Below, one piece after another: positions 352-50,377 of a stretch of DNA of 64,000 nucleotides; position 1 is the first letter of the stretch, and each line of letters begins with the position of its first letter. The notes under the pieces were generated by a model. It worked only from the letters and a program-made list of their open reading frames with translations. It searched no databases and was not told where the DNA came from. Made by a program: the position numbers and the translations under genes. The stretch comes from a virus: the IMG/VR virus record IMGVR_UViG_3300022908_000001, positions 1 to 64,000 of that record. The stretch is one strand, 5' to 3'.

Positions 352-1629
352 ATGAAATACCTGAAAATTCAAAATCAGGGTGAATTAGACATTCGCCTTG
401 TCGCCCTGATGGGTGGGACAACAAAAATTGACAACCCTCACAAAATCGGTCAATTTGGAACTGGACTCAAATACGCTATTAGCTGGTTAGTCCGAAATGA
501 AAACAAATTCAAATTATTTATTGGTGAAAATGAAGTAGTCTTTGAAAGCAGAGATGAAACTATCGCCGACAATTCATTTAAGGAAATTTACTGCAATGGT
601 AAATCGATGAGTATCACAACTCGCTATGGCTACCAATGGAAAGCATGGGAAGCTATAAGAGAATTGTGGTGCAATGCTAAAGACGAGGGTAGTGAACTAA
701 GGGAAGAAAGCGAAATAGCGGTTGGAGAACCCGAAACGACCACGTTTTTTATTGAAATTACGGAAGAAATACAAACATTAATTGACACATGGGATACCTA
801 TTTCTTAGCCGATCAGCCCTTGTTCGAGAATGGAAACTTCGGCATTTATAATAATCCTGAAAAACATCTAAAAATTTATAAAAATCGTGTTCTTATTCAC
901 ATAGATACTTATTATAAATCTAAATTCATTTATGATTTTAAAGAAGCCAACCTGAATGAATTAAGGCAGTTTATGGGATATGCCAAAAGTGATATAGCTA
1001 CAGCATTACTCCAATCGAATAAAGATGTTATCGATTTGGTGCTAACCGATTTTAAAAATCAAAACCAGAATGATAGGGTTGAATTTACGCTTGACTTCGG
1101 ATATACCAAATATGATGAGGATTACGTAAAATCCATATTTGAGGGCTATCTGTTTTTACATCCTGAAAGTGATAGGCGCAGTGGAAGCAAAAGTATACAG
1201 GTAAATAAATCTCTGTTTGAATTATTACAAAAAATCGGACTGCCAACTGAAACGGTTTATTCAGAGCGCGGACGTTATTACGGCGGTAGTGGGTATGGAA
1301 TTGACGATGATAGCGAAGTTATCTATTCTGAAATAAGCGATAACCAACTTCAAAAACGTATAGATATTATATCTGCAAAATATGATATTGAAATGGATTA
1401 TTCTATAGTGACACCCAAGGACAGTGATTTTGAAATTCTGATCAATAACAACGGCGAAATAATGTTTAGCTATGATTTGAAAAATCAATCCGATGCCGAC
1501 TTAGAAGCAATTGTATTGATAGCTATCTTTCAAACAAAACAAGGAAACATCTTTAAAGCCTTGAAAAGATTGATTAAATTTGCTCGGTCTAATAAGGCGT
1601 TTAAGAAAATATTTTTTGGCGAGATATAA
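352..1629 (+). CDS. GHKL (HATPase_c-like) ATP-binding protein, circularly permuted motif order; moron
   Basis: IQNQG and IGQFGTGLKYA near the N-terminus; N-box-like AIRELWCNAKDEG near residue 100. Lies opposite to the flanking genes with its own promoter and terminator. Confidence 0.75.
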   Translation: MKYLKIQNQGELDIRLVALMGGTTKIDNPHKIGQFGTGLKYAISWLVRNENKFKLFIGENEVVFESRDETIADNSFKEIYCNGKSMSITTRYGYQWKAWEAIRELWCNAKDEGSELREESEIAVGEPETTTFFIEITEEIQTLIDTWDTYFLADQPLFENGNFGIYNNPEKHLKIYKNRVLIHIDTYYKSKFIYDFKEANLNELRQFMGYAKSDIATALLQSNKDVIDLVLTDFKNQNQNDRVEFTLDFGYTKYDEDYVKSIFEGYLFLHPESDRRSGSKSIQVNKSLFELLQKIGLPTETVYSERGRYYGGSGYGIDDDSEVIYSEISDNQLQKRIDIISAKYDIEMDYSIVTPKDSDFEILINNNGEIMFSYDLKNQSDADLEAIVLIAIFQTKQGNIFKALKRLIKFARSNKAFKKIFFGEI

Positions 1630-1663
1630 GCCGTAGTGTTCCGCAAGCTCATTGCGGTTTTTT

Positions 1664-1696: not shown

Positions 1697-1996
1697 TCAC
1701 TTCCCCCACTTAATAAACCTATACAGCCTCCACATAACGAACACCATAGGCACGTTGCAGATGATACGAACCCACAAGGCGGATGAGTTTTGAAAGTATC
1801 CTAAGTCCCAAATCAGATAGTATGCCCCTGCAAAACCGTAGACCCAAGCCTTAGTAAGAAATAGTTCCATTATAAGCGACCTTAGTTTACCCTTATCGGT
1901 CGCCCTGTAAAACTCATACCAGATGCATAATGAGAAGATGAATATTCCCCAAAACATTATTTGCGATATAAGCATTTCAATATGCACGGGTGTCAT
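1697..1996 (-). CDS. Small three-TM membrane protein (holin-like cluster)
   Basis: 99 aa, three hydrophobic segments, ATGA overlap with the upstream gene. Confidence 0.6.
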   Translation of the reverse strand: MTPVHIEMLISQIMFWGIFIFSLCIWYEFYRATDKGKLRSLIMELFLTKAWVYGFAGAYYLIWDLGYFQNSSALWVRIICNVPMVFVMWRLYRFIKWGK

Positions 1997-2745: not shown

Positions 2746-2845
2746 AAACTTAAAAATCCTGTTCCGGGTTCAGCCGATTGCGCCAGCCTCACCCAAAACA
2801 GGATTGAAATATCTTTAACTACGGAGCGCAATTCCGATTTGTTAA
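2746..2845 (-). ncRNA. Structured leader RNA upstream of HNH copy 1 (two hairpins, kissing loop)
   Basis: Hairpin CGGA-AUUGCGC-UCCG. 15-bp stem AAUCCUGUUUUGGGU/ACCCGGAACAGGAUU with GCGCAAU at its apex. Homologous to 18257-18355. Confidence 0.7.
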
Positions 2846-2860
2846 TACGAATATACGAAA

Positions 2861-4096: not shown

Positions 4097-7000
4097 TTAT
4101 TCTCGTAAAAATTGAGTTCCGTCCGGCATGAGTGTTACTGCACTTCCCGGGGTTATTGTTATACTTGCCACAGCCGATGTGTCGTATATTTGATTGCCAC
4201 TTGCACTATTAAGGGTTATATTTCCGCTACCTGCATTTTTGATCGTGATTTGATACGCCCTGCCCGTAGCTGAACCCGATGGTGCGGGTAAAGTCCATGT
4301 GGTTGTCGTGCCATTAAACTCATAATCATTACTTGCGGCTAGCGTCAGTGTTCCGGCGGCTGATATCGTTATACCCGGATTAAGCAATGTACTTGCCGCT
4401 ACAGTGATATTCCCACTCGCATAAGTTAACCCAACACCTGTTCCAGCAACCAGCTTAGTCATCCTAACCGCGTGTGTAGTCGGGTTAAAAGCCATTAAAC
4501 TGTCGTTACTCGAAGCGGCTACAAACTGGCTGATACGGGCACGCCCAATCACGGAGAATTTGTATGCAGTTGAGTCGGATTGCGTACCACCTGATTGAAC
4601 CAATAGGTTGCCGGTGCTGAATAGGGTGGCGTTGGTTTGCCCATTCGTTTGCAGACTTATAGCAGTTGCGCCGGGGGTCTTTATAGTAAGCGCCGACGAG
4701 CTGGATGAGGACAAAATATTACTAAAGGTATTCTGCCAAGTCAATGCAGATGTTCCGTTTGATACAGCATTAGTAGTTAGCGGAACAACGTTACCACCAA
4801 ATCCATTAGTACCAGCCAATGAGTATAACGCGTAATTAGCTGTTGCCCCTGTTGGCGCGGCATCGATATATAAAGAAGCCGCGTTAGTCACGGTTGATCC
4901 GCCGGTAACCGTAATTGCAGGTGCTTTTATAGCTACGTTAGAAAGCATAGCACTTGTTCCTGAACTCGCTGTGGTTACCGCAGAGGAGGCGAATATATTT
5001 CCAGCGTATGAATTACTGGCGCCTAATGCCTGTGACGATTGATTGCCACCAAAGGCGTTTCTATACATTACCGTACCCGCACCGGCAAAAGTATACAACG
5101 CATTAGATGAACCTGCGCCTATATTTGATGAATACGAAACAAAGTTAGAGGTGGCTACCGTTCCAAATCCAAGCGTTGTACTTGAAGTGTTACCACCTAA
5201 AATCGTTCCGTTTGATGTAACCGTACTTGATAGCAACGCTCCAAGATTGCTTACCTGAAAACCGGTAGCCGTTGGCGTGGCGCCCGCAATGGATTGGTAT
5301 AAGATGTAATTCGCTCCCGGAGTCGTGGTTCCTTGTATTGGTGTTAACCCGAAACCCATACCGATTGTGGACGCGGATACGGGTGTAGTCAGCCAAGCGG
5401 AGCCGGTATTCAGCGTAATGGGTGAGTTCTTTTGCGCACCTACTGTAGCTACATCGCTACCGGCGAAATTTGAGCCTACCACCAGTGTTGAGCCAATGCC
5501 TGATATGTTGGCATTGACTGATGTAGTAAATGTCTTAGCGCCACCTATAGATGCCTGCGTGGTGGTTAGGTCAACGAAAGGCTGCGTACCTGAACCTGTA
5601 CCTCCGTTGGCTATGGGGAGTACGCCTGTAACTCCGGTGGTCAACGGCAACCCTGTTAGGTTAGTTGCCACACCAGAGGATGGTGTACCAAGAGCTGGCG
5701 TTACGAATGTCGGGGATGTTGCAAACACAGCGCTGCCAGACCCGGTTTCGTCACTGATCGTTGAGGCTAATTGCGCAGATGTGGTTGAGGCGAATTGAGA
5801 AAGAGGATTCGCTACTTTGCCCAATAATCCCTCAAAAGTTGCAGATATGTCGATCTGCGGTGTAGTTCCCCCTGTCGAAGTTATACGGTTGGTTGTGCCT
5901 GTTACGGCGGCGACTGTTCCCCCGCCGCCACTCCCTGAATTGCCAATAACGCGCAAAACCGTTCCGTCATAATACTGATACTTGGCGGAGTCGGTATTAA
6001 ATACTAAAGTTCCCTGAATTAAATAATTCTGGACTAATGCGGTTGATCCAGTTCCATCCCCTGTAACGGTCGCTGTTTGCGGAGTTAAGTACCCTGTACC
6101 GGCATTTGTTACCGTCCAACTCCTTATTTGTCCGCCAACTATTACGGGAGTAGCCGTAAAGCCGCTTCCAGTCGAGCCACTTAAGGATATGCTTGCAGTT
6201 GTATAGCCGCTGCCTTGATTTACGACATTGATAGACGAAATCTTCTCCATAGCCACAACTTGCGCAGTGGTCATTCGGGGCGGTATAAAGCCCTTAGTAA
6301 GGCTATTTATGGTTAACTTACCGGACGGAACTGTTGCGTAGGTATCGGGGGTTACAAAGTCGGCATCGTTCTGCAATAATGCCTGTCCATCATAGTTTAT
6401 GCCAAACATTTTAACCTGAGCACCGTCAGTTCCATTAGCCTCATACACCGAAGTGCTGCCTCTACTTTTCTGATTAAATATCTGCTGTTCAGAAGCGGAT
6501 GTCAGTGGTACGATGCCTGATTGGTATCCTGACCCATCGTCAAAATAAAATTTATTCCCAAGACCTGTTATTTTCACACTGCCATCAGAAACGATATTCC
6601 CAGCAGCATCCAGCGCCATATTTCTATGACTATTATTCATAAAGGTCATAGCCGCACCAGCGCCACCATTCATAAAGAATGTCATACCTCCGCTTATATC
6701 CATTGGTTGAACATAATTGTAGATGCCAAACCCTGTATTGGGTGTGTATATGCCCGTTATTCTCGCCCCCTCGCTTAACGAAAAGTCGTTTGACTGAACT
6801 GTATAACCCGGTGGAGTAGTCCACCCCGGTTGATAAAGCGTACCATTAAGGTAAAAGTTTCCCGCCGTGCCAATATCTTTAGGTAATTGAGCAATTCTGC
6901 CGACCGTGTCTCCCGCCGTAATACCCATTAACATTGGGTTAACTGTGGCGCCTAATGGTATATTAGGCAGTTTTGGTAACCTCAATGTAGTCAGATCGGT

Positions 7001-12800: not shown

Positions 12801-14443
12801 ACTTTCCCTCATCGCCTTCAACTCCTTTTGAATAAGTAGTACGGTTTCCCGTAACCAGGTCTTTTAATTTATCATTGGCCTGGTCTATCTTATCCTGTAT
12901 CAACTGCTCCTGCTGTCCGGGTATTTCAGATACAGATGGGTCAAGTTTACTTCGCTGTTCCTGTAAGTCCTTTAATTGACCCTCCAATTCATTTCGACCC
13001 ATAATAATGGATACACCTTTTGTAACTTTTTTAGCAGGCAAGGTGGGCGGTAACTTGGCTACCGTATTGGATAGTAAATCAACTCCGTCCTGTGCTTGCT
13101 GTATCTGCTCATCAGTCCAGCCCTTTTCTTTACCGTGTTGTACAACGTCTTGTTTTAGTGACGCAACAGCTTCGGGGCTATTATCGGTCTGTAATTTCTC
13201 AATAGTTGGATTAGGATTGTGCCCAAGCATGCCTAACATTTCACCAGCGCCCGTTATCCCGCCAAATACTGCGGCAGGCGAAGTTATTATATTGCCCAAT
13301 GCTGCTTTCAAATCACCATGTGGGTTCTGATCTAAACCGAACGGTTCCGATACCCCTTGTACAAAGTCTGCACCTGTGGTATCTTTAAACGGCTCTTCGC
13401 CACTCACAGCATTGGCTAATTTCTTAGTTCCGAATGTGGCAGCATTAGCGGCAGATAACTCCGTGCCAACTTTAGCATATTGGGCTATAGCAGATAACCC
13501 AGTTTGTCCAACTTTTTCAGCAAGCGTGTTGGCTTTGGACAGGAAAGCATCTGCAATATCCTGCGAGGTTGCCTGTATGCCCTTTTCACCTAATTCCTGT
13601 ATGGCTTCGGCTGTCAAGCCTGATACGATATTGCTTTTAGCGGCGCTCCCGAATGAGTTAAATACCTTACCCATGCTGCCACGACCTAACGCTGTCCCAA
13701 TAACACCTGAACCGAGTATGAAGAGGTCGTCGGAATGGTTATCAAACTTAACGCCATTGTCCTTCATCTTTTGAACGGCGGTTGCAGCTTGACCGGCTGT
13801 TTGCAATCCAAATGAAGCGCCGCCTGTTTCCCCCGCTGTTATTAAGGACGGAGCCATAAAAGCGAATTGGTTGATAGCATTGTGAACCTTACTATCGCCT
13901 TGTTGCAGTGTGCTCGGGTCTAAACCGAATGTTTCCTTTCGGCTATCGGCAACCTGATCAAGTACCCGCTTTGTTTCCGCATCATCAACCAGACCTATTT
14001 TATTTGCGCCATAATACAATGGGGCGATAGTCATATTGGCAATACCTTTATTCAAGCTGCCTGCTATGGATTTTAACTCATAAGCGGCTTTTTGGCTAAA
14101 TGTTGGCGCTACGTATTGTTTGATTTGATCGGGTTGTTGATCTGGTGCAACTAAGTTTCCACCTTGCGCTTGCCTGTATGCAGCCAAGTTGCCCTCAAGT
14201 TGGTTCGACAGCGCCTGTGATTTCGCATCTTGTGCGGCGTGGTATTGCGGAGTAAATGGCGTAACAGGTTCAGTACTTGACGGGGAAAGGGGGTCGGGTA
14301 GGCTACCTAAACCAGTTAATGAACCTGTGCCACCAGTAGAGTGGGGTATATTTTTTTTTAGGAGGCGGCGGGGGTAACCCATCGTCTCCTGAACTAACCT
14401 TTTTAGGGGGAGGTGGTAATAAATCGTCGTCTACTGTTCCCAT
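9865..14443 (-). CDS. Large ejection (cargo) protein; true start probably 14443 with a frameshift at the A9 run 14351-14359
   Basis: 1505-aa ORF with an acidic linker and coiled coils, third of three ejection-like genes. ATG 14443 directly follows the upstream TAG and encodes MGTVDDDLLPPPPKKVSSGDDGLPPPPPKKK in another frame. Confidence 0.65.
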
Positions 14444-17174: not shown

Positions 17175-17626
17175 TTATTTTTTAATTTAGCAATCGCGGC
17201 ATCATAGGCGGATGTATTAGTCCCGTAGTTCTGTCCATTAAACGCCGCTACAGGATATCTGTAAGATGAAGTCCGGCTACCGAGCCACCCGTCAACGGGG
17301 CTTATCCCACCCATTATTTCATCTTCTGACTTGACATCCGGAGCAGCAGCAGGATTAGCTTTCCATTTTTGTATCAATGACTGCCTGTAATTCTGTAAAT
17401 CCGATTGGACTGCCGGAACTTGGTCGTATGTTAAGGTAAAATGTGGGTTTTGTGCCCGGTATTCTTCCATTAACTTCTGTCCTAAGCCGGTGTCACGGTT
17501 ATCCAATGCGGGATTTCCTTGCATGCCCTTCTGCTTTAGGTAGTCCAAGAATGAGTTCCATTGCATTCTCTGGTCATTGCCTAATGGTGTTCTGCTTGTA
17601 GCTGCGGCTGCTTTTACGTACGTCAT
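17171..17626 (-). CDS. Hypothetical protein in the virion module
   Basis: 151-aa ORF coupled to the cupin gene. Confidence 0.6.
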   Translation of the reverse strand: MTYVKAAAATSRTPLGNDQRMQWNSFLDYLKQKGMQGNPALDNRDTGLGQKLMEEYRAQNPHFTLTYDQVPAVQSDLQNYRQSLIQKWKANPAAAPDVKSEDEIMGGISPVDGWLGSRTSSYRYPVAAFNGQNYGTNTSAYDAAIAKLKNK

Positions 17627-17665
17627 AATTTAAAATTATATAATTACCATACAATAATAATCAAT

Positions 17666-18256
17666 TTATTGCAACCATTTCCATTTTCTTCTTTTTGCTA
17701 AGTCATCTATATGGCGCCTTTGTAAATTAGGGAATGCCTCACAAATTTGTTTTATCTTACTACCCGAATCATACATTCGTCTAATTTCCAAAACCTCATA
17801 CTCTTTAACGGTTCTATTTTTCTGCTCGGATATAGGCTTTTTAACAAATCCAGCATTGTATCTTGCGTCAAAACGCGCTTCGGTAGCAAGCCTTGTACAA
17901 TCTTGGCACCTACACCCATAACTATATGCGGTTTTACTTGGATGGGTAACTACCGGCATCCTTCCTTTGAGTTGAGCATCGTTCATGTTATCTTTCTGCG
18001 TACCCAAAAATAAGTGAAACGGATTTACGCAACTCGGATTGTCGCATTTATGGCAAATTTTCATACCTTCCGGCACTTCTCCTATGTAATGCATATAAGA
18101 ATACCTATGCGCAAAATACCCCCTTTCCCTTGTTTTAAATGAACCGTAGCCTTTTTTGTTTTTGCTTGCCTGCCATTCCCAACAACCGTTTTCTGGAGTG
18201 TATTTAACGAAACTAATAAACCTTTCAATATCAGATAATTTACTTCTCGGTGGCAT
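17666..18256 (-). CDS. HNH homing endonuclease (copy 2) with C-terminal HTH
   Basis: GCWEWQ, AHRYSY, ICHKCDNPSCVNPFHLFLGTQKDNMND, GCRCQDC; C-terminal VLEIRRMY helix-turn-helix; paralogous to 2251..2745. Confidence 0.9.
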   Translation of the reverse strand: MPPRSKLSDIERFISFVKYTPENGCWEWQASKNKKGYGSFKTRERGYFAHRYSYMHYIGEVPEGMKICHKCDNPSCVNPFHLFLGTQKDNMNDAQLKGRMPVVTHPSKTAYSYGCRCQDCTRLATEARFDARYNAGFVKKPISEQKNRTVKEYEVLEIRRMYDSGSKIKQICEAFPNLQRRHIDDLAKRRKWKWLQ

Positions 18257-18355
18257 AATACTAAAAAAGCCGATGAGCCGGGTTCAGTCTGCCAACATCC
18301 CCCGAATCAACGGCTATTAAATATCTTACTAACCGTGGCAGCGGTTATTTATCAA
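18257..18355 (-). ncRNA. Structured leader RNA upstream of HNH copy 2 (two hairpins, kissing loop)
   Basis: AACCG-CUGCCA-CGGUU hairpin. Long stem AGCCGUUGAUUCGGG/CCCGGCUCAUCGGCU with UGGCAG at its apex. TATATTTG promoter immediately upstream. Confidence 0.7.
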
Positions 18356-18366
18356 TACAAATATAA

Positions 18367-28695: not shown

Positions 28696-29808
28696 TTAGA
28701 GTTTGTAATATTCCTTAACAGCCGCTGCCCTTGTATCCCTGTCTGATTTACCTGCGTTATCAACATTATCCGGCCCACGATTAATAGCCGATGGGTTATG
28801 ATATTCCTCACGTATCTTCTTTTCAGCCACATTAACGGCGTGCTGACGCCATGCTTCGTGGTTTTCCAGTATGAGTACGTTTTGGGCGAAATCAGATATA
28901 CGCTTAGCGCCATCTTCATTAGCCGGAATATCTGACCAGTTACTTTGTATGTATTGAGCCACTTTAGCAGGCAGTGTTTTTACGCTATCTTCCGATGGGG
29001 TAAAATCTGCGAATATTGCTTTGTCATCCGACTTACCGTTAATATTTATATTGGCAAAACTGATGTTCTTCAATGCATTATTTGCTATCGGCGCTAACTT
29101 ATCAATGTGTTGAGTTTGTTTCTGCGCTTGTATAGCCTGTTGTTGCTCTTGTTCTGATGCGGGAGCCTGTGATACCTGTGCCTTATGCTCGGTCAGGTAC
29201 TTACGGTCATCCTGTGCATCTACTTTAAGCCGGATTTGTTCTCTTGCAATCGTTTCTTCGTCGTGATCTTCGGGGTTGAGTTTATACTGGCCTTCGAGAT
29301 AAATCTTAGCCTCTTTCTCAGTCAATCCCATTTTAACCTGTAGCGCCAATGCCTTAGCATCATAAGCCGACATGCTTTCAAAGTTGTCATGCTTGTTCAG
29401 TTTCAGGAATGCGTCTACTTGCTCGGGTTTTGCGCCGCCTTTTAGCAGTTCGTTGAATTTCTTTGATAAATCATTGGCGAACGGGTCGGTTGCTACTTTG
29501 GCTTTTAGTTCGGTATTCTCGCTGTCGAGTTGGCTTAAGCGGCTTTCAAAGTCGCCAAGTTGTCCATACTTCTCTAAAATGCCCGCAAGATCGTCTTTGG
29601 TCTTAACGCGTCCGTCAGTAATCTTTACTAACTCTGCGTCCAAGTCAAATTGTGGAGCTTGCGCCTGCTCGATTTTTGTTGGCTCGGGAGTACTCGCTAC
29701 TTCCGGTGCCGGTGGGGTATCAGGGGTATTAGGTGTTGTTGGTGTTGTAGGTTCGCTCTTTGTTAGAACGCCAGCTTGCTCAAGTAAGTCTAAAGTATCG
29801 TTTGGCAT
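28696..29808 (-). CDS. Capsid scaffolding protein
   Basis: Acidic, Pro/Thr-rich N-terminus and coiled coils; immediately upstream of the capsid gene. Confidence 0.7.
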   Translation of the reverse strand: MPNDTLDLLEQAGVLTKSEPTTPTTPNTPDTPPAPEVASTPEPTKIEQAQAPQFDLDAELVKITDGRVKTKDDLAGILEKYGQLGDFESRLSQLDSENTELKAKVATDPFANDLSKKFNELLKGGAKPEQVDAFLKLNKHDNFESMSAYDAKALALQVKMGLTEKEAKIYLEGQYKLNPEDHDEETIAREQIRLKVDAQDDRKYLTEHKAQVSQAPASEQEQQQAIQAQKQTQHIDKLAPIANNALKNISFANININGKSDDKAIFADFTPSEDSVKTLPAKVAQYIQSNWSDIPANEDGAKRISDFAQNVLILENHEAWRQHAVNVAEKKIREEYHNPSAINRGPDNVDNAGKSDRDTRAAAVKEYYKL

Positions 29809-32196: not shown

Positions 32197-34529
32197 GCTG
32201 ACTTCCTTGGCATAATTAAACTCTGTAATCTTAACTCATTTAACCTATTTTGTCCTTTAATGATTTCGGTCTGGAGCGCTTGCTGTGTCTGTTGCTGTCC
32301 TTTTTGAGCCTGTAATACCGCTTCATTCTGCGCTTCCTGTTGTTGCAATTGAGCATCAGTTTGACCTTTAGCCTGCTGTGACATCTGTTGCTGTTGCCCA
32401 TTTGCCTGTATAGCCTGCATTTGTTCTTGCTTGGCCTGTTCCTGGCGTTTAGTTACAGCAAATGCGGTATATATCTGAGCCTGCTTTAATTTTCCTGAGC
32501 GGATCATGGATTCTACCAGCAAAAAATCCGCTTCACTCATAGATTGCAAACCACCCTGACGGGCTGCCGAGCGCATTTGCATGATATTTTCAAGCATTAA
32601 TTGCTTATCGCTATCATTCAACGCAGGTACAATTTGACAGTCAAAATCGTAATCAAATATCTTTTCACTTATACCAACTATCTCAAGTGAGCGTGAGATG
32701 CTTAATTTCTTCTTTTGCTCCGGTGTAGCATACTTAGCCACGCACTGCCATTTACTTGCTACAACCTCATAAACCGATTGCGTCATCTGCTCTCCCGCAT
32801 TAATCAACGGCGTTAACGAGTTCTGGCTACCTTCGAGCAACAGTTTGCTAACACCAAGCCCCGTCTGCTCATGCGGTGTCTGCGCTGCAAAAATATCATT
32901 CACGCCAGTAACTTTCTCGATCATGCCAATAGTACGGGACATATCTTCCCACCAAGCTGAAATGATTTGCATAAGGTCTGTTCCAATTGGCACAACCGGT
33001 CTGCCTGCACCCTGATTCTGCCCCCATTGGTTCTTGGTATCCATCAACAGGTAGCCCTCGTCTTGCAGTATTTTCAACAACTGTTGGGGTTTGTAGGAAA
33101 CTCCATCAATCTTCATGCCCTCTAACGCACCTTTGTCTATGGCTAAATTTGGCGGTGCAGGCATCTTAGCACGAGCCACGCGCAATTTTAGCATGATTAG
33201 TTGCGCATCATCTACGAAAGGTATAGAGCGTTCCACGATTGAAGTAGAGCCAGTGCGAGTAAACTTCAAAGGAAACAGCGGCCATTTCTTACCGCCTTCT
33301 GTTTTATAGTTGATGTCGGTATCTTCTCCGTAATCGAATACGTACATTGAACCCAAGACAAGAGATGCACGGTAGACAGTCATGTTTGAGTAGGCGTCGA
33401 GGGTTTTGCCCTTATTATTTTTGACCTTGTTCAGGTCATACGAGGCGTCAACCTTATTCACTACCAACGTACCGTTATCCCTTGTCACGCTGGTAACCCT
33501 AACCGACTTACTCCCAATCCAATACCCCCTGAATACATCGACCAAAATCTGATCGATCATTCTGAAATCAAACTGATCGTTGTTATTGTATAATGAAGAG
33601 AAGAAACCGGATGTATTCGTGTTGGCGTATTTACGGGCTATTTCAATAACCTGCTTACTGGTCAAATCAGAAGTCCTGCGTAATTCTGCTATAGATATTC
33701 GCTCCCACCAACCACCCCAAGAGGCGTCACGGTAGTCCCTGTATTGAGAATGTGGAAATACAGCCCGTTCAATATCGATGTATCGTTCTTCTACCTCATT
33801 TGAATTAGGATTGGTAAATACGCCCCGTGCCGCATATCCGACAGTAATAAGGTCATCGTTCTGCAAATCCTCTATACCTTCTGTTTTGGATATGTAACGG
33901 GTGGTATCGATCAGGTTTTCCAGTGCAGCTTCCTCTTCGAGCATGAACAAGCCGATAGATTGAGCCAAGTCAACATCCTGTGGTGTTTGAATTGGAACGG
34001 AGTTGTTAGCGGCAGGAATTTGTGGCTTAGCAAGGTTAACGGTGTGATATTGGTTGACGTTCTGCAGCAGGTTTCCAAGCCGTATGTCGGTGACAATTTT
34101 AGCTACAGCGACTTTAGTCTTTTTGTCCATCAGCGCCTCGTAATCACTTGCCTGAACGTTGATGTCATATTTGTTCTTCATCAGGAAGCCAAGTACAGCA
34201 TCGCATTTCTGCGGAAGCACCTGTGTCATATCCCATGAGATGTTCAGTGTAGTTTTGCGTATGCCAGACTCATCCGGCAACCCAACCATATAGTTTTTAT
34301 ACTTATTGATGTTGTTACGCCCGTGCCGGTAAGCGCGTAACTCCCCAATAGAACGGCGCGTCCCCCATCCATCATAAGGCAACCCGCAACGGTTCATAAA
34401 GTACTTTGAACACATCGCATTGCAGGCGGCTAAAAAATATCCTTCGTCTTTTACGGGGTTTGATTCATCAGGGAAAGGGTACGCCGTTTCCGAAACATAC
34501 TTGGATGCGAATTTTAACTGTTCTGCCAT
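32193..34529 (-). CDS. Portal protein (crAss-related type)
   Basis: 778 aa; LRAYRHGRNNINKYK, LNISWD, VTGVND, C-terminal Gln-rich barrel; downstream of terL. Confidence 0.85.
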   Translation of the reverse strand: MAEQLKFASKYVSETAYPFPDESNPVKDEGYFLAACNAMCSKYFMNRCGLPYDGWGTRRSIGELRAYRHGRNNINKYKNYMVGLPDESGIRKTTLNISWDMTQVLPQKCDAVLGFLMKNKYDINVQASDYEALMDKKTKVAVAKIVTDIRLGNLLQNVNQYHTVNLAKPQIPAANNSVPIQTPQDVDLAQSIGLFMLEEEAALENLIDTTRYISKTEGIEDLQNDDLITVGYAARGVFTNPNSNEVEERYIDIERAVFPHSQYRDYRDASWGGWWERISIAELRRTSDLTSKQVIEIARKYANTNTSGFFSSLYNNNDQFDFRMIDQILVDVFRGYWIGSKSVRVTSVTRDNGTLVVNKVDASYDLNKVKNNKGKTLDAYSNMTVYRASLVLGSMYVFDYGEDTDINYKTEGGKKWPLFPLKFTRTGSTSIVERSIPFVDDAQLIMLKLRVARAKMPAPPNLAIDKGALEGMKIDGVSYKPQQLLKILQDEGYLLMDTKNQWGQNQGAGRPVVPIGTDLMQIISAWWEDMSRTIGMIEKVTGVNDIFAAQTPHEQTGLGVSKLLLEGSQNSLTPLINAGEQMTQSVYEVVASKWQCVAKYATPEQKKKLSISRSLEIVGISEKIFDYDFDCQIVPALNDSDKQLMLENIMQMRSAARQGGLQSMSEADFLLVESMIRSGKLKQAQIYTAFAVTKRQEQAKQEQMQAIQANGQQQQMSQQAKGQTDAQLQQQEAQNEAVLQAQKGQQQTQQALQTEIIKGQNRLNELRLQSLIMPRKSA

Positions 34530-45375: not shown

Positions 45376-45567
45376 TCAGGGTGTACCGGTAAAATCTTTA
45401 TGTTGGTCGTCCATTATCGTTTGCTCCCCAAGTATCGGAACAATATTTGGCTTTACCAAATTTGTGAATACTTTTTTCTCCGGCCCCACCGCAACGGGCA
45501 CACGCACTGCCTGCACCCTACCCTTCACGCACGCAGCGGCTTCTTCTAAGAGGACTTTGTAGTTCAT
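45376..45567 (-). CDS. First gene of the leftward late operon, hypothetical
   Basis: TATCTTTA just upstream at about 45573-45580. Confidence 0.5.
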   Translation of the reverse strand: MNYKVLLEEAAACVKGRVQAVRVPVAVGPEKKVFTNLVKPNIVPILGEQTIMDDQHKDFTGTP

Positions 45568-45821
45568 GGGTGTAAAGATACCACTTAGGTTGTAAAGTTG
45601 GCTTATTTTTGATTTTGGGTGTGTAGATGTGATATGGGTGCAGCCACCTATAGACGGGTGGGGTAGATCCGTGTGTGAAAAGTGCGTTTACTGAACCGGC
45701 GTACCCTCAAATATTTTCAAAAGCATTCCGGATAAAGGATGCTGTTGTGAGGCCGATAGGACATAGGGAAGCTATTCTAACAACTACTTGATAATTATAG
45801 TATTAATACATATATTGTGTT

Positions 45822-46163
45822 ATGAATAGAATAACATCTTGTATCTACATGATACTGTTTGACAACAATATGTGTTATATTGGCAAATCAGATGCACCAT
45901 ATTTAAGATTTTATAAGCATATCTCATTACTAAAATCTAACAGGCATGGTAATAGAATAATGCAACAAGCTTATAATGAAGGTCACTTTAAATCTATTGA
46001 TTTTGCTGTTGTTAGAGAGGTTGATAGAGATGTTGTAAGCGACTGGGAGAAGTTTTATATATTCCTTTATAACAAAACAGCCTATAATATTATGTGCAAT
46101 AGGAATTATAAAAAGACTGGAAAATCTGAAAGATACATGAACAATAAAGTAGAATTAGTATAA
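45822..46163 (+). CDS. GIY-YIG endonuclease
   Basis: CIYMILFDNNMCYIGKS...R...H, EKFYI, YNI. Confidence 0.8.
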   Translation: MNRITSCIYMILFDNNMCYIGKSDAPYLRFYKHISLLKSNRHGNRIMQQAYNEGHFKSIDFAVVREVDRDVVSDWEKFYIFLYNKTAYNIMCNRNYKKTGKSERYMNNKVELV

Positions 46164-46899: not shown

Positions 46900-47229
46900 A
46901 TGAAAGCCTTACCAATCCTAACCACAGTAAACTACAATTTAGCTAACGAATCATACAGCGCAACACGTCACGACATTAATACACGCATTACTTTCCGCGG
47001 CTCTCATTGCGGCTTGCATGGATGTCATATAAATACATTCAGCGATCCACTTTGGTACTTAGGATCATTCACTAAGGCTCAAAGGCTCGAAAACTACACC
47101 AATGGTATGTTAGAGCAACTTGAGCGCCCATTCCATTTTACAGATGAAGAATGGGCTCAATTTGAGCATGATTACGCATCTGAAATACATTCAGAGCGCT
47201 GTCTTGCACGCGAAATGGCAAACTATTAA
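46900..47229 (+). CDS. Early hypothetical protein
   Basis: Follows an AT-rich promoter region containing TATACTTG. Confidence 0.6.
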   Translation: MKALPILTTVNYNLANESYSATRHDINTRITFRGSHCGLHGCHINTFSDPLWYLGSFTKAQRLENYTNGMLEQLERPFHFTDEEWAQFEHDYASEIHSERCLAREMANY

Positions 47230-47316
47230 GCAACTCTAAGTTCTGCTAAGTCTTAGCAGTCTGCCAGCGCATACCTCACAAGGGTTGCGCTTAAGGCAGT
47301 AAAAGACCACAACAAA

Positions 47317-47526
47317 ATGACTAACAACGAAAAAGTACAAAAGAATATTCACCTCACAGACGAGGTAATATCAGGGCTAAAGGATTTATCTTTGAAAGAG
47401 GATAGAACATTGAAGGCCTTTATCGAACGTGAACTAATCGCAATGGCTGCAAAGGGTGTGAGCTACCTCGACCTTTACACCCAATACGAACGCACAGCAC
47501 AAAAGTTGAGGGAGATATTAGAATGA
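47317..47526 (+). CDS. Ribbon-helix-helix DNA-binding protein
   Basis: KNIHLTDEVISGLKDLSLKEDRTLKAFIEREL. Confidence 0.65.
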   Translation: MTNNEKVQKNIHLTDEVISGLKDLSLKEDRTLKAFIERELIAMAAKGVSYLDLYTQYERTAQKLREILE

Positions 47527-50377
47527 GAATAATAGACAACACCCCAAACGGGATAGCAAAAGCTTCGATATTAAAATACCAAGAAGCAGACCGCAAGAGT
47601 AGGGTAATGATGCTGAAATTTGTAAATGAGCAACTAAATTTCTTTTTTCAGTATAATGACGATCAAGTGAAAGCGGCTCATATATTCTTAAAACTAACTA
47701 ACCACATTTAAAAACATACGAAGATGAAAACAGATTACAACGGGTGGAAAAACCGCCAGACATGGAACGTAGCTTTACACATTGGTAATGATTATAGCCT
47801 ATACAAATCAGCAGTTGAGTTTGTAAAGAATATCGGCGATCAAAACCATAACAAGCTATATATGAAGTTTGTTAAACATATCGGCTTGCGTGGCGAACGC
47901 ACACCTGATAATATTGCATACGATGGCAGCCGCTTAGACTACAAGGCACTGAATGAATTTATGCGTGACATTATTAACTAACCCCATCACAACCAAATAA
48001 AAGAGAGATTATGAAAAAGTACATCATCGCACAAGACAAACAGGGTAAGTTTATTGTATTCGCTACCATATCAGACCTTAGGGATGAACTGGACAATATT
48101 AAATCATGGTTAAGTATCAGGGCTGACTCGATAGAAGAGGCGATAGATAGGTTTCCAGAAATTGAGGCTAAGTATGATAAGATCAATAAGGCGGACAGCC
48201 TGAAACATATCATAGACCTGTCTTAACCACCGCAGAGTCAGTTAATAAATTATGTAAATAAGAGGAGAAAATGAAAATAAAAAAATCACTATGGCAGCAC
48301 GAAATGGAGTTAGAAACGCTCATTATTGTATATAAAAAAATGATAGAATGCCGGGATGATAAGGAAACGATAGAGAGGCAATGGCAGAAGATTTTAGATA
48401 AACATGAATTTATAAACTTAACTTACACAGCATAATGAACACACTAACAACACTACAGATCGACCTGCCAACTTTCTTACTAAGCATGGCACTGATCCAG
48501 GCACTCGCACACATCCTCCCCCTTGTTGACTGGAAAGAAGAAACGAGGGATTTGAGGGAATTGTTTACCACAAAATCAATTGAGAAGATATGAAAACCAA
48601 CGAACTACAAAAACTAAAAGAGCGCCAACTTGCCTACAATGCCAAGTGGAGCGAGGGTAAAAAACTATTAAGGATGTATAACTGTCCTTCATGTAACAAG
48701 CCTAACCAAACTCCAATGCCAACACGAAAAGATGTGTCAGGTAAGGGATATTGGGACAGCTTAACCACTTGTTACGAGTGTGGCGACTGCTACTTTGTGA
48801 TAAAGTATCCGAAGTCATTAATGTTACCTCATGGTAAAATACTGATCAGAACTATAGATGGAGTAGATCACGATGCCGACATTCAGGCAGAGAGCCAACC
48901 TAAATCGAATATCGATAAACTTGTAGATTTGCTATGAAAACATATCAAGCACCTCCGGTCAACAAACCTACACGAAAAGAAATCAAATTCTGGCAGGCAC
49001 AAGACAAATACGGTTGTGCCATTGAGAATAATAATTCAATAGCCATTCTCCGGGCTAAGTACGGAGCAAGTGTAATTTATAAAGCTATAAGATGAAAACA
49101 GACCACACAGAAGCGAAACCATTTATGGAAGCTATGAGTAAATCAGCCGATGCTGACAAGGTAGTGAAGTTATTTCAAGAATTGTGGAATGATTCTGCTA
49201 ATAATATGTACAATATAAGTAAATGGCAAGAAACATTTGTACTACTTTTAAATGTAGCAAAACCTACGAGACTTTAGCCATCCGCTAACATTTAACGCAA
49301 AAAAGGAAAGATTATGAAAAAGCTAATTAAGGATATGTCAGACGAGGAAGTCATGGACGTATATAAAACAAGGTCTGTAGCCGCCCAAAAAGATATACTA
49401 TACTTAGCATTGATTATAATAGTCGGCACCAACAAGACTCGTAATGAAGCTATAATTGAATCGGTAAAACATCTTTATATAGACTAACCATGCCAACCAA
49501 CCCAAATGAGCCGGTAAGCCCGGTGACAATAGATGTGAAGCTGACTATAAAAGAGGCGAAACGTATTGAAATGGCATTACGTGCTTTACCATACCCCATG
49601 TACGAAGAGCGGGTATTCAATAATATGCTGGCTGACAAGTTAGACGCCCTAATCAACGCACTTAATGAGAAAACGAAATGATAAACTGGACAGATTCAGC
49701 AGAAATACCCAAGCCTGCTACAGACGACAAATGGAGTCACGACAATGATCTAAGCAACCGGGTATTGGTGGCAAGTTATAATGGAAGGGATGGCGAGATT
49801 CAACCTGCAAGGTTTGCCCGGTATCACTTTAGGTTAAATTGGTGGAATATTGAAGGTATAACCGGAGGTAATTATATTGTTACGCATTATTCAGAGATTA
49901 ATATGCCGGATAACGCACTTAATCAGAAAGAGGGATGAAAAAACTAATCATAAACAATTGCAACCAATGCCCCCACTTCAAGGTGAGTGAGATACATGGC
50001 ATAGATGACTCATATAGGGCAACCTGTAACCATCCTGATATTGACAGTGTAGATTGGTCAGTCAAGCGTGGCAGAGACGCTTACATACCTTTATTCTGTC
50101 CATTGCCGGAGAATGTGGAACTTGACGAGTTTTTTAACCCTTAACCCCAAACAAGATGCAGAAAAGTAAAACCCATACAATCGTAGACAAGGCGCGTGCC
50201 AACATGCCAAGCCATCCTGTGGTCCGTATACATTCAGTATTCACAGGATACGTATATTACGATGTTAGTACCAATAAGAAGCATTGCCGAAATCCTATAC
50301 ATAGTGGAGTTACGGATTATAACAATCGGTATCTTGGAAGATACAGCGACCTTACAAATAGATACCTTGATTTTTAA
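47523..50377 (+). CDS. Array of small early hypothetical genes (47523, 47724, 48011, 48590, 49092, 49490, 49678, 49935, 50156)
   Basis: Co-oriented short ORFs. 47724 has YNGWKNRQTWNVAL, a pattern common in phage proteins; 48590 has a CxxC...CxxC zinc finger. Confidence 0.6.

Follow-up and report, generated by a model that had tools for sequence, protein, structure and literature searches.

The window examined here, that is, the whole 64-kb stretch of DNA that was analysed, spans positions 1 to 64,000 of the 73,487-bp virus record IMGVR_UViG_3300022908_000001, a genome with direct terminal repeats. At two places in it, a short leader RNA made of two hairpins with complementary loops is set between a promoter-like box and the gene of a homing-endonuclease-like protein. 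By comparison with related sequences we demonstrate a shared anatomy of this leader, covariation of all three of its helices, mobility of the cassette in which it resides, and reassortment between leaders and downstream genes.

Both copies are found on the minus strand. In copy 1, a putative −7 promoter box (TATATTCG, 2848-2855) is followed by hairpin 1 (H1), which according to sequence and folding reads CGGA[AUUGCGC]UCCG (2822-2836) and exposes the kissing loop at 2826-2832. An A-rich, single-stranded linker (2806-2821), containing AAGAUAUUU at 2807-2815, leads into the long hairpin 2 (H2; 2755-2805). In the latter, 15 pairs, two of them U-G, make up the lower stem; above it come the GA/GA internal loop (2789-2790 and 2770-2771), which is symmetric, an upper stem of 5 pairs and the apex GCGCAAU (2777-2783), whose letters complement those of the H1 loop. 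CUGAACCCGG forms part of H2 (2764-2773). Together with H2, five uridines at its foot (2752-2756) resemble a terminator, which we take as a predicted one, and the AUG (2743-2745) comes 9 nt past the final H2 pair. It opens a frame for a 164-aa HNH_3/zf-His_Me homing-endonuclease-like protein (2251-2745). A first-pass annotation of the window had described these leader elements, correctly in each case.

It had also proposed that a second leader of the same architecture, written in other letters, precedes the HNH gene that starts at 18256, and this holds as well. Copy 2 (18254-18365) shows the order of copy 1 with different stem and loop sequences: a −7 box (TATATTTG, 18358-18365) that begins 2 nt past the stop codon of a gene encoding a crAss-type muzzle C-terminal domain, H1 as UAACCG[CUGCCA]CGGUUA (18330-18347, loop 18336-18341), H2 (18268-18315) with the internal loop GGGGGA / UGAACC and the apex UGGCAG (18289-18294), a U-tract (18263-18268), and an open reading frame (ORF) for a 196-aa HNH_3 homing-endonuclease-like protein (17666-18256). 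The two downstream proteins, both HNH_3 / zf-His_Me, are 49% identical. Folded alone, H2 reaches −31.6 kcal/mol in copy 1 (z −7.3) and −21.6 kcal/mol in copy 2 (z −3.1), and in either case none of 200 shuffled sequences folded as well.

Who hosts this virus? Apart from the muzzle domain, found in one ORF of the window, a terminase, a portal and a DnaB-type helicase are recognisable in the record. Among cultured phages, the terminase matches only phages of Flavobacterium, Cellulophaga, Tenacibaculum and Maribacter (at ~26% identity, with 86 of 87 records so named), and the host is for this reason very likely a member of the Bacteroidota. This agrees with the boxes of the form TAnnTTTG described below, which is the −7 promoter consensus of Bacteroidota. 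In such hosts, translation start does not rely on Shine-Dalgarno pairing.

A family of leaders with covarying loops

At least 20 distinct copies of the leader, copies 1 and 2 included, were collected from virus, metagenome and metagenome-assembled genome (MAG) contigs (G000 denotes the window genome, other G numbers the records of relatives, and L numbers individual loci). The order of elements—−7 box, H1, A-rich linker, H2, U-tract, ATG—is the same in 20 of 20. A box fitting TA..TT[TCA][GA] is located 4-14 nt upstream of H1 in all of them and reads exactly TAnnTTTG in 11. H1 comprises 3-6 bp with loops of 6-8 nt, the linker measures 13-18 nt throughout and contains AUAUUU in 12 of the first 16 copies, and the arms of H2 extend over 18-22 nt with 13-19 pairs, at energies from about −17.7 to −30.0 kcal/mol. 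In every copy a U-rich tract occupies the foot of H2 and an ATG follows 8-23 nt past H2 on the same strand. The leader RNA is ~80 nt long.

The H1 loop and the H2 apex are Watson-Crick complementary over 6-8 nt in all 20 copies, although the loops fall into 12 different sequence classes. When representatives of the first 10 classes were paired across classes, none of 90 combinations reached 6 nt, the longest being 4 nt, and none of 100,000 permutations attained the observed sum of complementarity. This kiss was counted by a dedicated script because covariance-model alignments leave the loops out of register. For the nested helices, 88.8% of cells pair in the model alignment of 13 distinct sequences, compared with 61.7% in shuffles (0 of 500 as high) and 27-49% in slid controls, figures that are somewhat flattered by an alignment fitted to the model. 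Across these 13 sequences, 18 of 24 nested pairs have changed on both sides, and all four H1 pairs do so across copies. The complementarity of the two loops and its compensatory change, first noted between the two copies of the window, therefore extend to the further homologues. By this mutual complementarity, kept through two-sided changes, the leader can be classed as a kissing-loop RNA.

G-U pairs are frequent in the stems, with U-G occurring in 7-8 of the 13 sequences at two positions of H2, and pairing is therefore on the sense strand. This bears on the thought that the signal might be a DNA feature, such as a cruciform or a recombination or homing site, or else a small coding frame. Inverted repeats are indeed also DNA features, and an ATG-started frame of 43 codons (2733-2864) spans copy 1. 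Yet the order a-b-a′-c-b′-c′ is impossible as a simple cruciform, the opposite strand would show A-C mismatches in place of the conserved G-U pairs, and the element is common to different nucleases with different targets, so that we find such an origin barely credible. As for a leader peptide, 9 of 20 leaders contain no stop-free frame of 75 nt or longer, the other copies do not share the same frame, and we rejected it.

The internal loop of H2 is conserved, too. A G·A is retained in 12 of 13 sequences beside a tandem G·A/A·G, giving the symmetric internal loop 5′-GGA-N / 5′-U-GAA. A kink-turn consists of a three-base bulge beside tandem G·A pairs; as the loop here is symmetric and devoid of a bulge, this identity was rejected, and it is only the run G·A, G·A, A·G that resembles the non-canonical stem of such a motif.

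Do the loops pair within one molecule or between molecules? The narrow lengths of linker and arms are compatible with a kiss inside one RNA (a correlation between linker length and arm length was dropped, being confounded by the delimitation of H1). In the other case, the short terminated RNA would be the true product, a trans-acting small RNA whose loops pair between molecules or with nascent leaders of the same class, possibly forming dimers or rings like the prohead RNA (pRNA) of phi29, or feeding back on termination in the way of plasmid antisense attenuation and P4 immunity, and the 12 loop classes would represent specificity or immunity groups. A small-RNA gene would look much like this series of promoter, 80-nt RNA and terminator; the kiss is free of any G-U pair in 20 of 20 copies, whereas the stems hold many and drift; and outside the kiss, same-class leaders are only slightly more alike than leaders of different classes (0.77 vs 0.70), as though loop identity itself were retained. 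Moreover, phi29 pRNA (PMC2241910) is an example of an RNA with two loops that covary yet pair between molecules. On the other hand, an ORF starting within 8-23 nt on the same strand in every copy fits a 5′ untranslated region (UTR) better, the narrow dimensions fit an intramolecular fold, and G002 possesses two cassettes with the loop AUUGCGC before different nucleases, meaning that loop classes are not orthogonal within one genome. On balance, we consider a trans-acting product unlikely, albeit the most serious of the alternatives. A bolder version is an RNA address code, by which short RNAs and nascent leaders of the same class would recognise each other through their loops. We rate this as distinctly improbable. 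If true, each class would be a self-specific feedback or immunity group that doses selfish nucleases and replication genes in a cell shared by several phages or cassettes, and homing endonuclease cassettes would carry an RNA-only, naturally orthogonal system of copy sensing.

Beside the loop classes, we observed that identical kiss sequences may be borne by scaffolds whose stems have diverged to background and that precede different genes (L210 vs L372, L268 vs L515, L007 vs L301). Two weak variant leaders outside the 20 were seen in G005, at 17258-17343 on the minus strand (L271) and near 13052 on the plus strand, each before a non-nuclease gene (phrog_4652 and one of no known kind); their loop and apex pairs are CUUUCGC/GCGAAAG and CCACGAC/GUCGUGG. 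The leader family may thus extend beyond the reach of the covariance model.

The copies were reached by four routes. Relatives of the HNH protein yielded 51 loci, with a leader in L007 alone; HNH-AP2 relatives at 33-41% identity carried it in 0 of 7 cases. The second route used DNA patterns of conserved letters, with no condition on proteins, and a script filter for H1, kiss and H2 stem. In viral contigs, true leaders accounted for 2 of 118 stretches among the matches listed, 4 of 61 and 2 of 24; one of the 2 true leaders among the 118 listed, which came from the looser pattern ATATTT...GGGNGA...TGAACC, was L007, already known. The exact pattern AAGATATTT...CTGAACCCGG gave 4 matches in viral contigs, all chance occurrences within coding sequence. 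Genome contigs contributed true leaders in 2 of 85 stretches, and metagenome contigs at least 10 among the 120 stretches listed (4 new, 6 repeats), one further match being false. Among 151 genomes of the family to which the Mucilaginibacter MAG belongs, the seed genome had the only true copy, and three weak matches were plain terminators.

For the third route, two covariance models were run over whole records of relatives: R1, built from copy 1 aligned with itself since MAFFT alignments of the leaders are out of structural register, and R2, built from eight model-aligned copies. These added L258, L260, L268, L269, L270 and L376. Finally, a motif-free descriptor was applied that demands a terminator hairpin and an upstream hairpin whose loop complements the apex. 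Over both strands of the whole window it returned copies 1 and 2 and one weak match in a coding region, nothing else, and in 370 kb of six other records it recovered seven known copies and one variant.

Mobile cassettes and reassorting genes

The leader moves. G007 is a close relative of the window genome (terminase ~82% and portal 78% identical), and a covariance-model search of its whole record found no leader. At the site of copy 1, the stop of an 88-aa ORF in G007 abuts the start of an 85-aa ORF, and G000 is longer by 610 bp, a cassette of promoter, leader and nuclease ORF (2251-2860). Likewise, the genes flanking copy 2, whose cassette occupies 17627-18366, adjoin each other in G007 and G008 with 1-15 nt between them, and a 139-bp gap is seen in G009. 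In G005, the same site is filled by a different cassette in opposite orientation, having the loops GUGCGG/CCGCAC and a gene with HNH_3 and AP2 domains. The site after the muzzle-domain gene (window 17627-18366; G005:70648-71290; G007 ~32300-32365; G008 ~28750-28800) consequently looks like a hot spot of independent insertions. Conversely, G002 has no detectable homologue of the G000 portal; the two share DNA of 82% and 77% identity over ~120 nt, the size of a leader, plus one 92-nt piece and little else. Found inside insertions and shared with so unlike a phage, the leader must be part of a mobile unit that crosses phage lineages. The proposal of a mobile promoter-RNA-nuclease unit is hence borne out, since the insertions that contain it are missing from the corresponding sites of close relatives. 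With a nuclease of a homing family that is present or absent at one and the same site, the unit corresponds to a free-standing homing endonuclease cassette, homing itself being a prediction from sequence.

Cassettes also occur side by side. In G008, two unlike leader-nuclease cassettes converge (45480-46148, plus strand; 46919-47545, minus strand) with one 153-aa ORF between them. Contig C136 of G011 (L528), 8.7 kb in length and binned with a bacterial MAG, carries two leaders in series (1210-1307 and 4168-4266) in a co-directional array of recombination and replication genes, each beginning right past the stop of the preceding ORF.

What is the cargo of these cassettes? Domain searches identified a nuclease gene downstream of 16 of 20 copies, or 13 of 17 when copies found without a protein criterion are considered, and a replication-type, non-nuclease gene downstream of the remaining four. 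The nucleases, 146-276 aa in size, are of HNH_3 or GIY-YIG homing type. HNH_3 is combined with zf-His_Me behind copies 1 and 2, L007, L235, L260 and L434, stands by itself behind L270, is joined to AP2 behind L251, L258 and L269 and to NUMOD4 and AP2 (NUMOD4-HNH_3-AP2) behind L210, and belongs to phrog_59 behind L417. L152 and L192 precede GIY-YIG with NUMOD3, and L268 and L301 an HNH of phrog_374. The four other genes encode a primase-like BT4734_N protein, then DUF5906/VapE (L372), phrog_15333 (L376), DUF6291, cut by the contig end (L507), and a replication initiator (L515).

The first-pass annotation had tied the leader to one family of HNH endonucleases. As to an association with HNH genes, the prevalence of nucleases downstream agrees with it in part, while GIY-YIG genes and the four replication-type genes do not. 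The narrower claim fails: the leader is absent from 50 of the 51 loci found through the HNH protein, and since the same scaffold precedes unrelated nucleases and replication genes, there is no tie to one HNH family. Furthermore, all six loop classes with several members are paired with two different gene families, CGGCCA for instance preceding both GIY-YIG and HNH_3+AP2.

Neither a copy-specific antitoxin nor a cofactor specific to one protein sits well with this reassortment of loop classes and genes. The order of promoter, structured RNA, terminator and nuclease gene does recall type III toxin-antitoxin loci, and RNA and nuclease do move together, which could suggest a cofactor, guide or antitoxin of the adjacent HNH protein in the manner of HEARO/omega RNAs or of such toxin-antitoxin systems. 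Against this, one scaffold and one loop class may stand before unrelated nucleases, and the scaffold also stands before a primase-like gene and a replication initiator; nearly all loci of the HNH protein do without it; the RNA is not repeated in tandem, each cassette yielding one covariance-model match; no HEARO or other Rfam match was obtained; and the variable loops complement each other, not, as judged by eye, the empty insertion site of G007. A function of the leader bound to one protein is accordingly very unlikely, and the gene neighbourhoods point to a generic one.

Two known systems were considered by name. In type III toxin-antitoxin systems of the ToxIN type, a promoter, a pseudoknotted RNA, a leaky terminator and a nuclease gene succeed one another, an order that the leader cassettes share, and tandem antitoxin repeats are cut by the endoribonuclease toxin. 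Given one covariance-model match per cassette and DNA nucleases of several families or replication proteins downstream, we rejected this identity. HEARO/omega RNAs, associated with IscB and TnpB, are similar in being structured RNAs beside an HNH-domain gene on a mobile element. They measure several hundred bases, carry a guide and serve RuvC-containing proteins of ~400 aa or more. The leader, at ~80 nt, precedes proteins of 146-276 aa with HNH_3 or GIY-YIG only and has no HEARO match, and this identity was rejected as well.

A candidate attenuator and its alternatives

Three roles had initially been suggested for the leader: attenuator, copy-specific antitoxin and nuclease cofactor. Its anatomy favours the first, and the occurrence of one loop class before different genes disfavours the other two. 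We hold, with roughly even confidence, that the leader is a portable promoter-proximal attenuator of Bacteroidota phages whose kissing fold tunes termination. Host RNA polymerase would start at the −7 box, a few bases ahead of H1, and the first ~80 bases of the transcript would fold into H1 and the long hairpin H2. Through 6-8 Watson-Crick pairs between the H1 loop and the H2 apex, a compact kissing fold would arise, probably aided by the symmetric G·A internal loop and the A-rich linker. H2 and the U-tract would act as an intrinsic terminator at which most transcripts stop as a short RNA of ~80 nt; a fraction would read through and serve as mRNA for the gene with its AUG 8-23 nt downstream. 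Wherever the cassette lands, it would in this way supply a low, context-independent dose of a potentially harmful nuclease, or of a replication protein. The kiss might lock the terminator or speed its folding, or make termination respond to a host or phage factor. It might also join the G·A loop and the linker in forming a site for a factor, lend stability to the short RNA, or link separate molecules by pairing.

The same order of elements, their narrow dimensions and the close ATG support this attenuator reading. In all 20 copies, H2 and the U-tract have the form of an intrinsic terminator, namely a stable, G+C-closed hairpin directly followed by uridines; a simple terminator scan omits H2, since the scanner permits no internal loop. 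In 9 of 16 folds, the U-rich tail can find a pairing partner in the A-rich linker, much as U-tails pair with A-tracts at strong terminators. Gene orientation adds to the picture: in 6 of 11 cassettes with readable neighbours (L210, L235, L251, L258, L268 and L269), the cassette is antisense to both flanking genes, and nuclease mRNA can therefore be reached there only from the leader's −7 box through H2. In these antisense cassettes the predicted promoter of the leader must be the working one. From such features we infer promoter use, termination, a read-through fraction and an effect of the kiss on termination. Plain intrinsic terminators occur in this genome as well, as seen from a canonical one at 1641-1657 (plus strand; a hairpin and T6) between the convergent genes 352-1629 (plus strand) and 1697-1996 (minus strand).

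Instead, H2 might be of no use for termination, and the fold might be a device of the mRNA 5′ UTR that guards against decay and offers a U/A-rich stretch before the AUG to ribosomes not relying on Shine-Dalgarno pairing. In keeping with this, H1 is located within a few bases of the predicted start, the AUG lies in an unstructured A/U-rich stretch after H2, and sense cassettes sit within long operons whose downstream genes are still needed; likewise, PMC2988022 describes for the T-even gene seg43(25) a hairpin of high stability that immediately precedes the ribosome site and whose effect is unknown. However, all 20 copies have a U-tract abutting a G+C-closed stem, a hallmark of termination that would be superfluous for stability or translation, and such a device leaves the conserved internal loop and the kiss unexplained. 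We thus regard it as fairly improbable, somewhat more so than the trans-acting RNA.

Several points weigh against the leader being an attenuator. A promoter placed ahead of its own terminator is an odd route to a low level of expression and needs leakiness or a regulator. A search by eye for an alternative antiterminator pairing found none, and hence no classical switch between two states is apparent. In sense cassettes, phage genes further downstream would suffer polar effects if termination were efficient, and a compensating box at the 3′ edge was seen in just 5 of 13 cassettes. The part played by the kiss in termination is purely what we infer, and by its topology the kiss does not compete with the H2 stem. 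Among public runs listed, none is an RNA run for this stretch, and one DNA run may be its source. Lastly, ascertainment is biased: 11 of the 20 copies stem from patterns requiring ATATTT, GGGNGA and TGAACC, making the conservation of these motifs partly circular; L258, L260, L268, L270 and L376, which stem from the covariance model, differ at them.

The 3′-edge boxes just mentioned (TATCTTTA, TAATTTTA) are −7-like and face the next phage gene. In the window they are found at 2266-2273 and 17631-17638 (minus strand), in G005 at ~71290-71300 (plus strand), and the empty insertion sites of relatives lack them. A further observation concerns the linker, where TAAAGATA, in copy 1 (2807-2818) and also in L235 and L269, has the reverse complement TATCTTTA, and this again fits a −7-like box, read on the other strand. 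In sequence so rich in A/T the fit might be fortuitous; an outward promoter is another possibility.

Which known systems resemble the leader? In its way of working it would be most like the terminators and hairpins of T-even nuclease genes, to which it is nonetheless unrelated. According to PMC2988022 and PMC2790892, RNA hairpins keep T-even homing endonucleases in check, the nuclease transcripts of T4 mobE and segF are limited by 5′ intrinsic terminators, which is a precedent for the attenuator reading, and the gene after mobE regains expression from a promoter at the mobE 3′ end. As described there, the T-even genes (mobE, segF, I-TevI to I-TevIII, segB, seg43(25)) share with the leader cassettes a free-standing position between phage genes, a 5′ intrinsic terminator limiting nuclease transcripts and stable hairpins beside the start codon, and the 3′-edge boxes recall the restoring promoter of mobE. 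The T-even hairpins of those accounts, however, are simple and gene-specific, located inside the coding region or over the Shine-Dalgarno site, and mobE is without a promoter of its own. The leader, by contrast, is a single conserved fold of two kissing hairpins, equipped with a predicted promoter of its own and common to unrelated nucleases and replication genes.

As a phage RNA with two complementary loops that covary among relatives, phi29 pRNA (PMC2241910) is also similar. The leader differs in its ~80 nt, its kiss of 6-8 nt, its predicted terminator end and the abutting ORF, and it has no pRNA match in Rfam. The pRNA is 120-174 nt long, contains a three-way junction, engages in 4-nt intermolecular pairing and binds the portal for DNA packaging. 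In the case of the P4 CI RNA (seqA/seqB/seqC), the C4 RNA of P1 and P7, and the plasmids pT181 and pIP501, loops of short leader RNAs pair with complementary stretches of the same transcript or a sister one, and this leads to premature termination before replication genes; specificity differs between relatives, and the RNAs concerned are processed or counter-transcribed, with alternative folds of the leader. The leader studied here is likewise a short promoter-proximal RNA with pairing loops beside a predicted terminator, but showed no evidence of a counter-promoter, no alternative fold and no Rfam match.

If this interpretation as an attenuator is correct, what would follow from it? Homing endonucleases are selfish genes that need slight expression, and T-even phages of E. 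coli are the only ones in which their control is understood in detail. Bacteroidota phages would have found a different solution, in which one kissing-loop leader with promoter and terminator is swapped among unrelated genes. In the annotation of Bacteroidota phages, crAss-like ones among them, the leader could mark nuclease cassettes that are mobile. Its 12 natural loop pairs, which do not match one another and share a common scaffold, would be material for testing the influence of a tertiary contact on intrinsic termination as well as for orthogonal RNA parts.

That the leader constitutes an RNA family missing from Rfam is well supported. The whole window gave no match at gathering score in Rfam 15, whose families include HEARO, pRNA, C4, mini-ykkC, pistol and hatchet, and around both copies matches stayed at chance level (E 1.2-8.4, 13-15 bits against cut-offs of 50-75). 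This is in line with the initial impression of an unrecognised family much smaller than HEARO/omega RNAs. Literature searches for homing endonucleases in combination with kissing loops or structured RNAs found no description; an IMG/VR catalogue (PMC10690425) comprises 8,495 candidate RNAs, and its tables may list the locus unnamed. Among 13 further leader-bearing loci, the sole Rfam match at E ≤ 1 was a tRNA fragment. At L152, a tRNA cut by the contig end (1-56, minus strand; Rfam tRNA, 34.2 bits) lies ~150 nt upstream of the leader.

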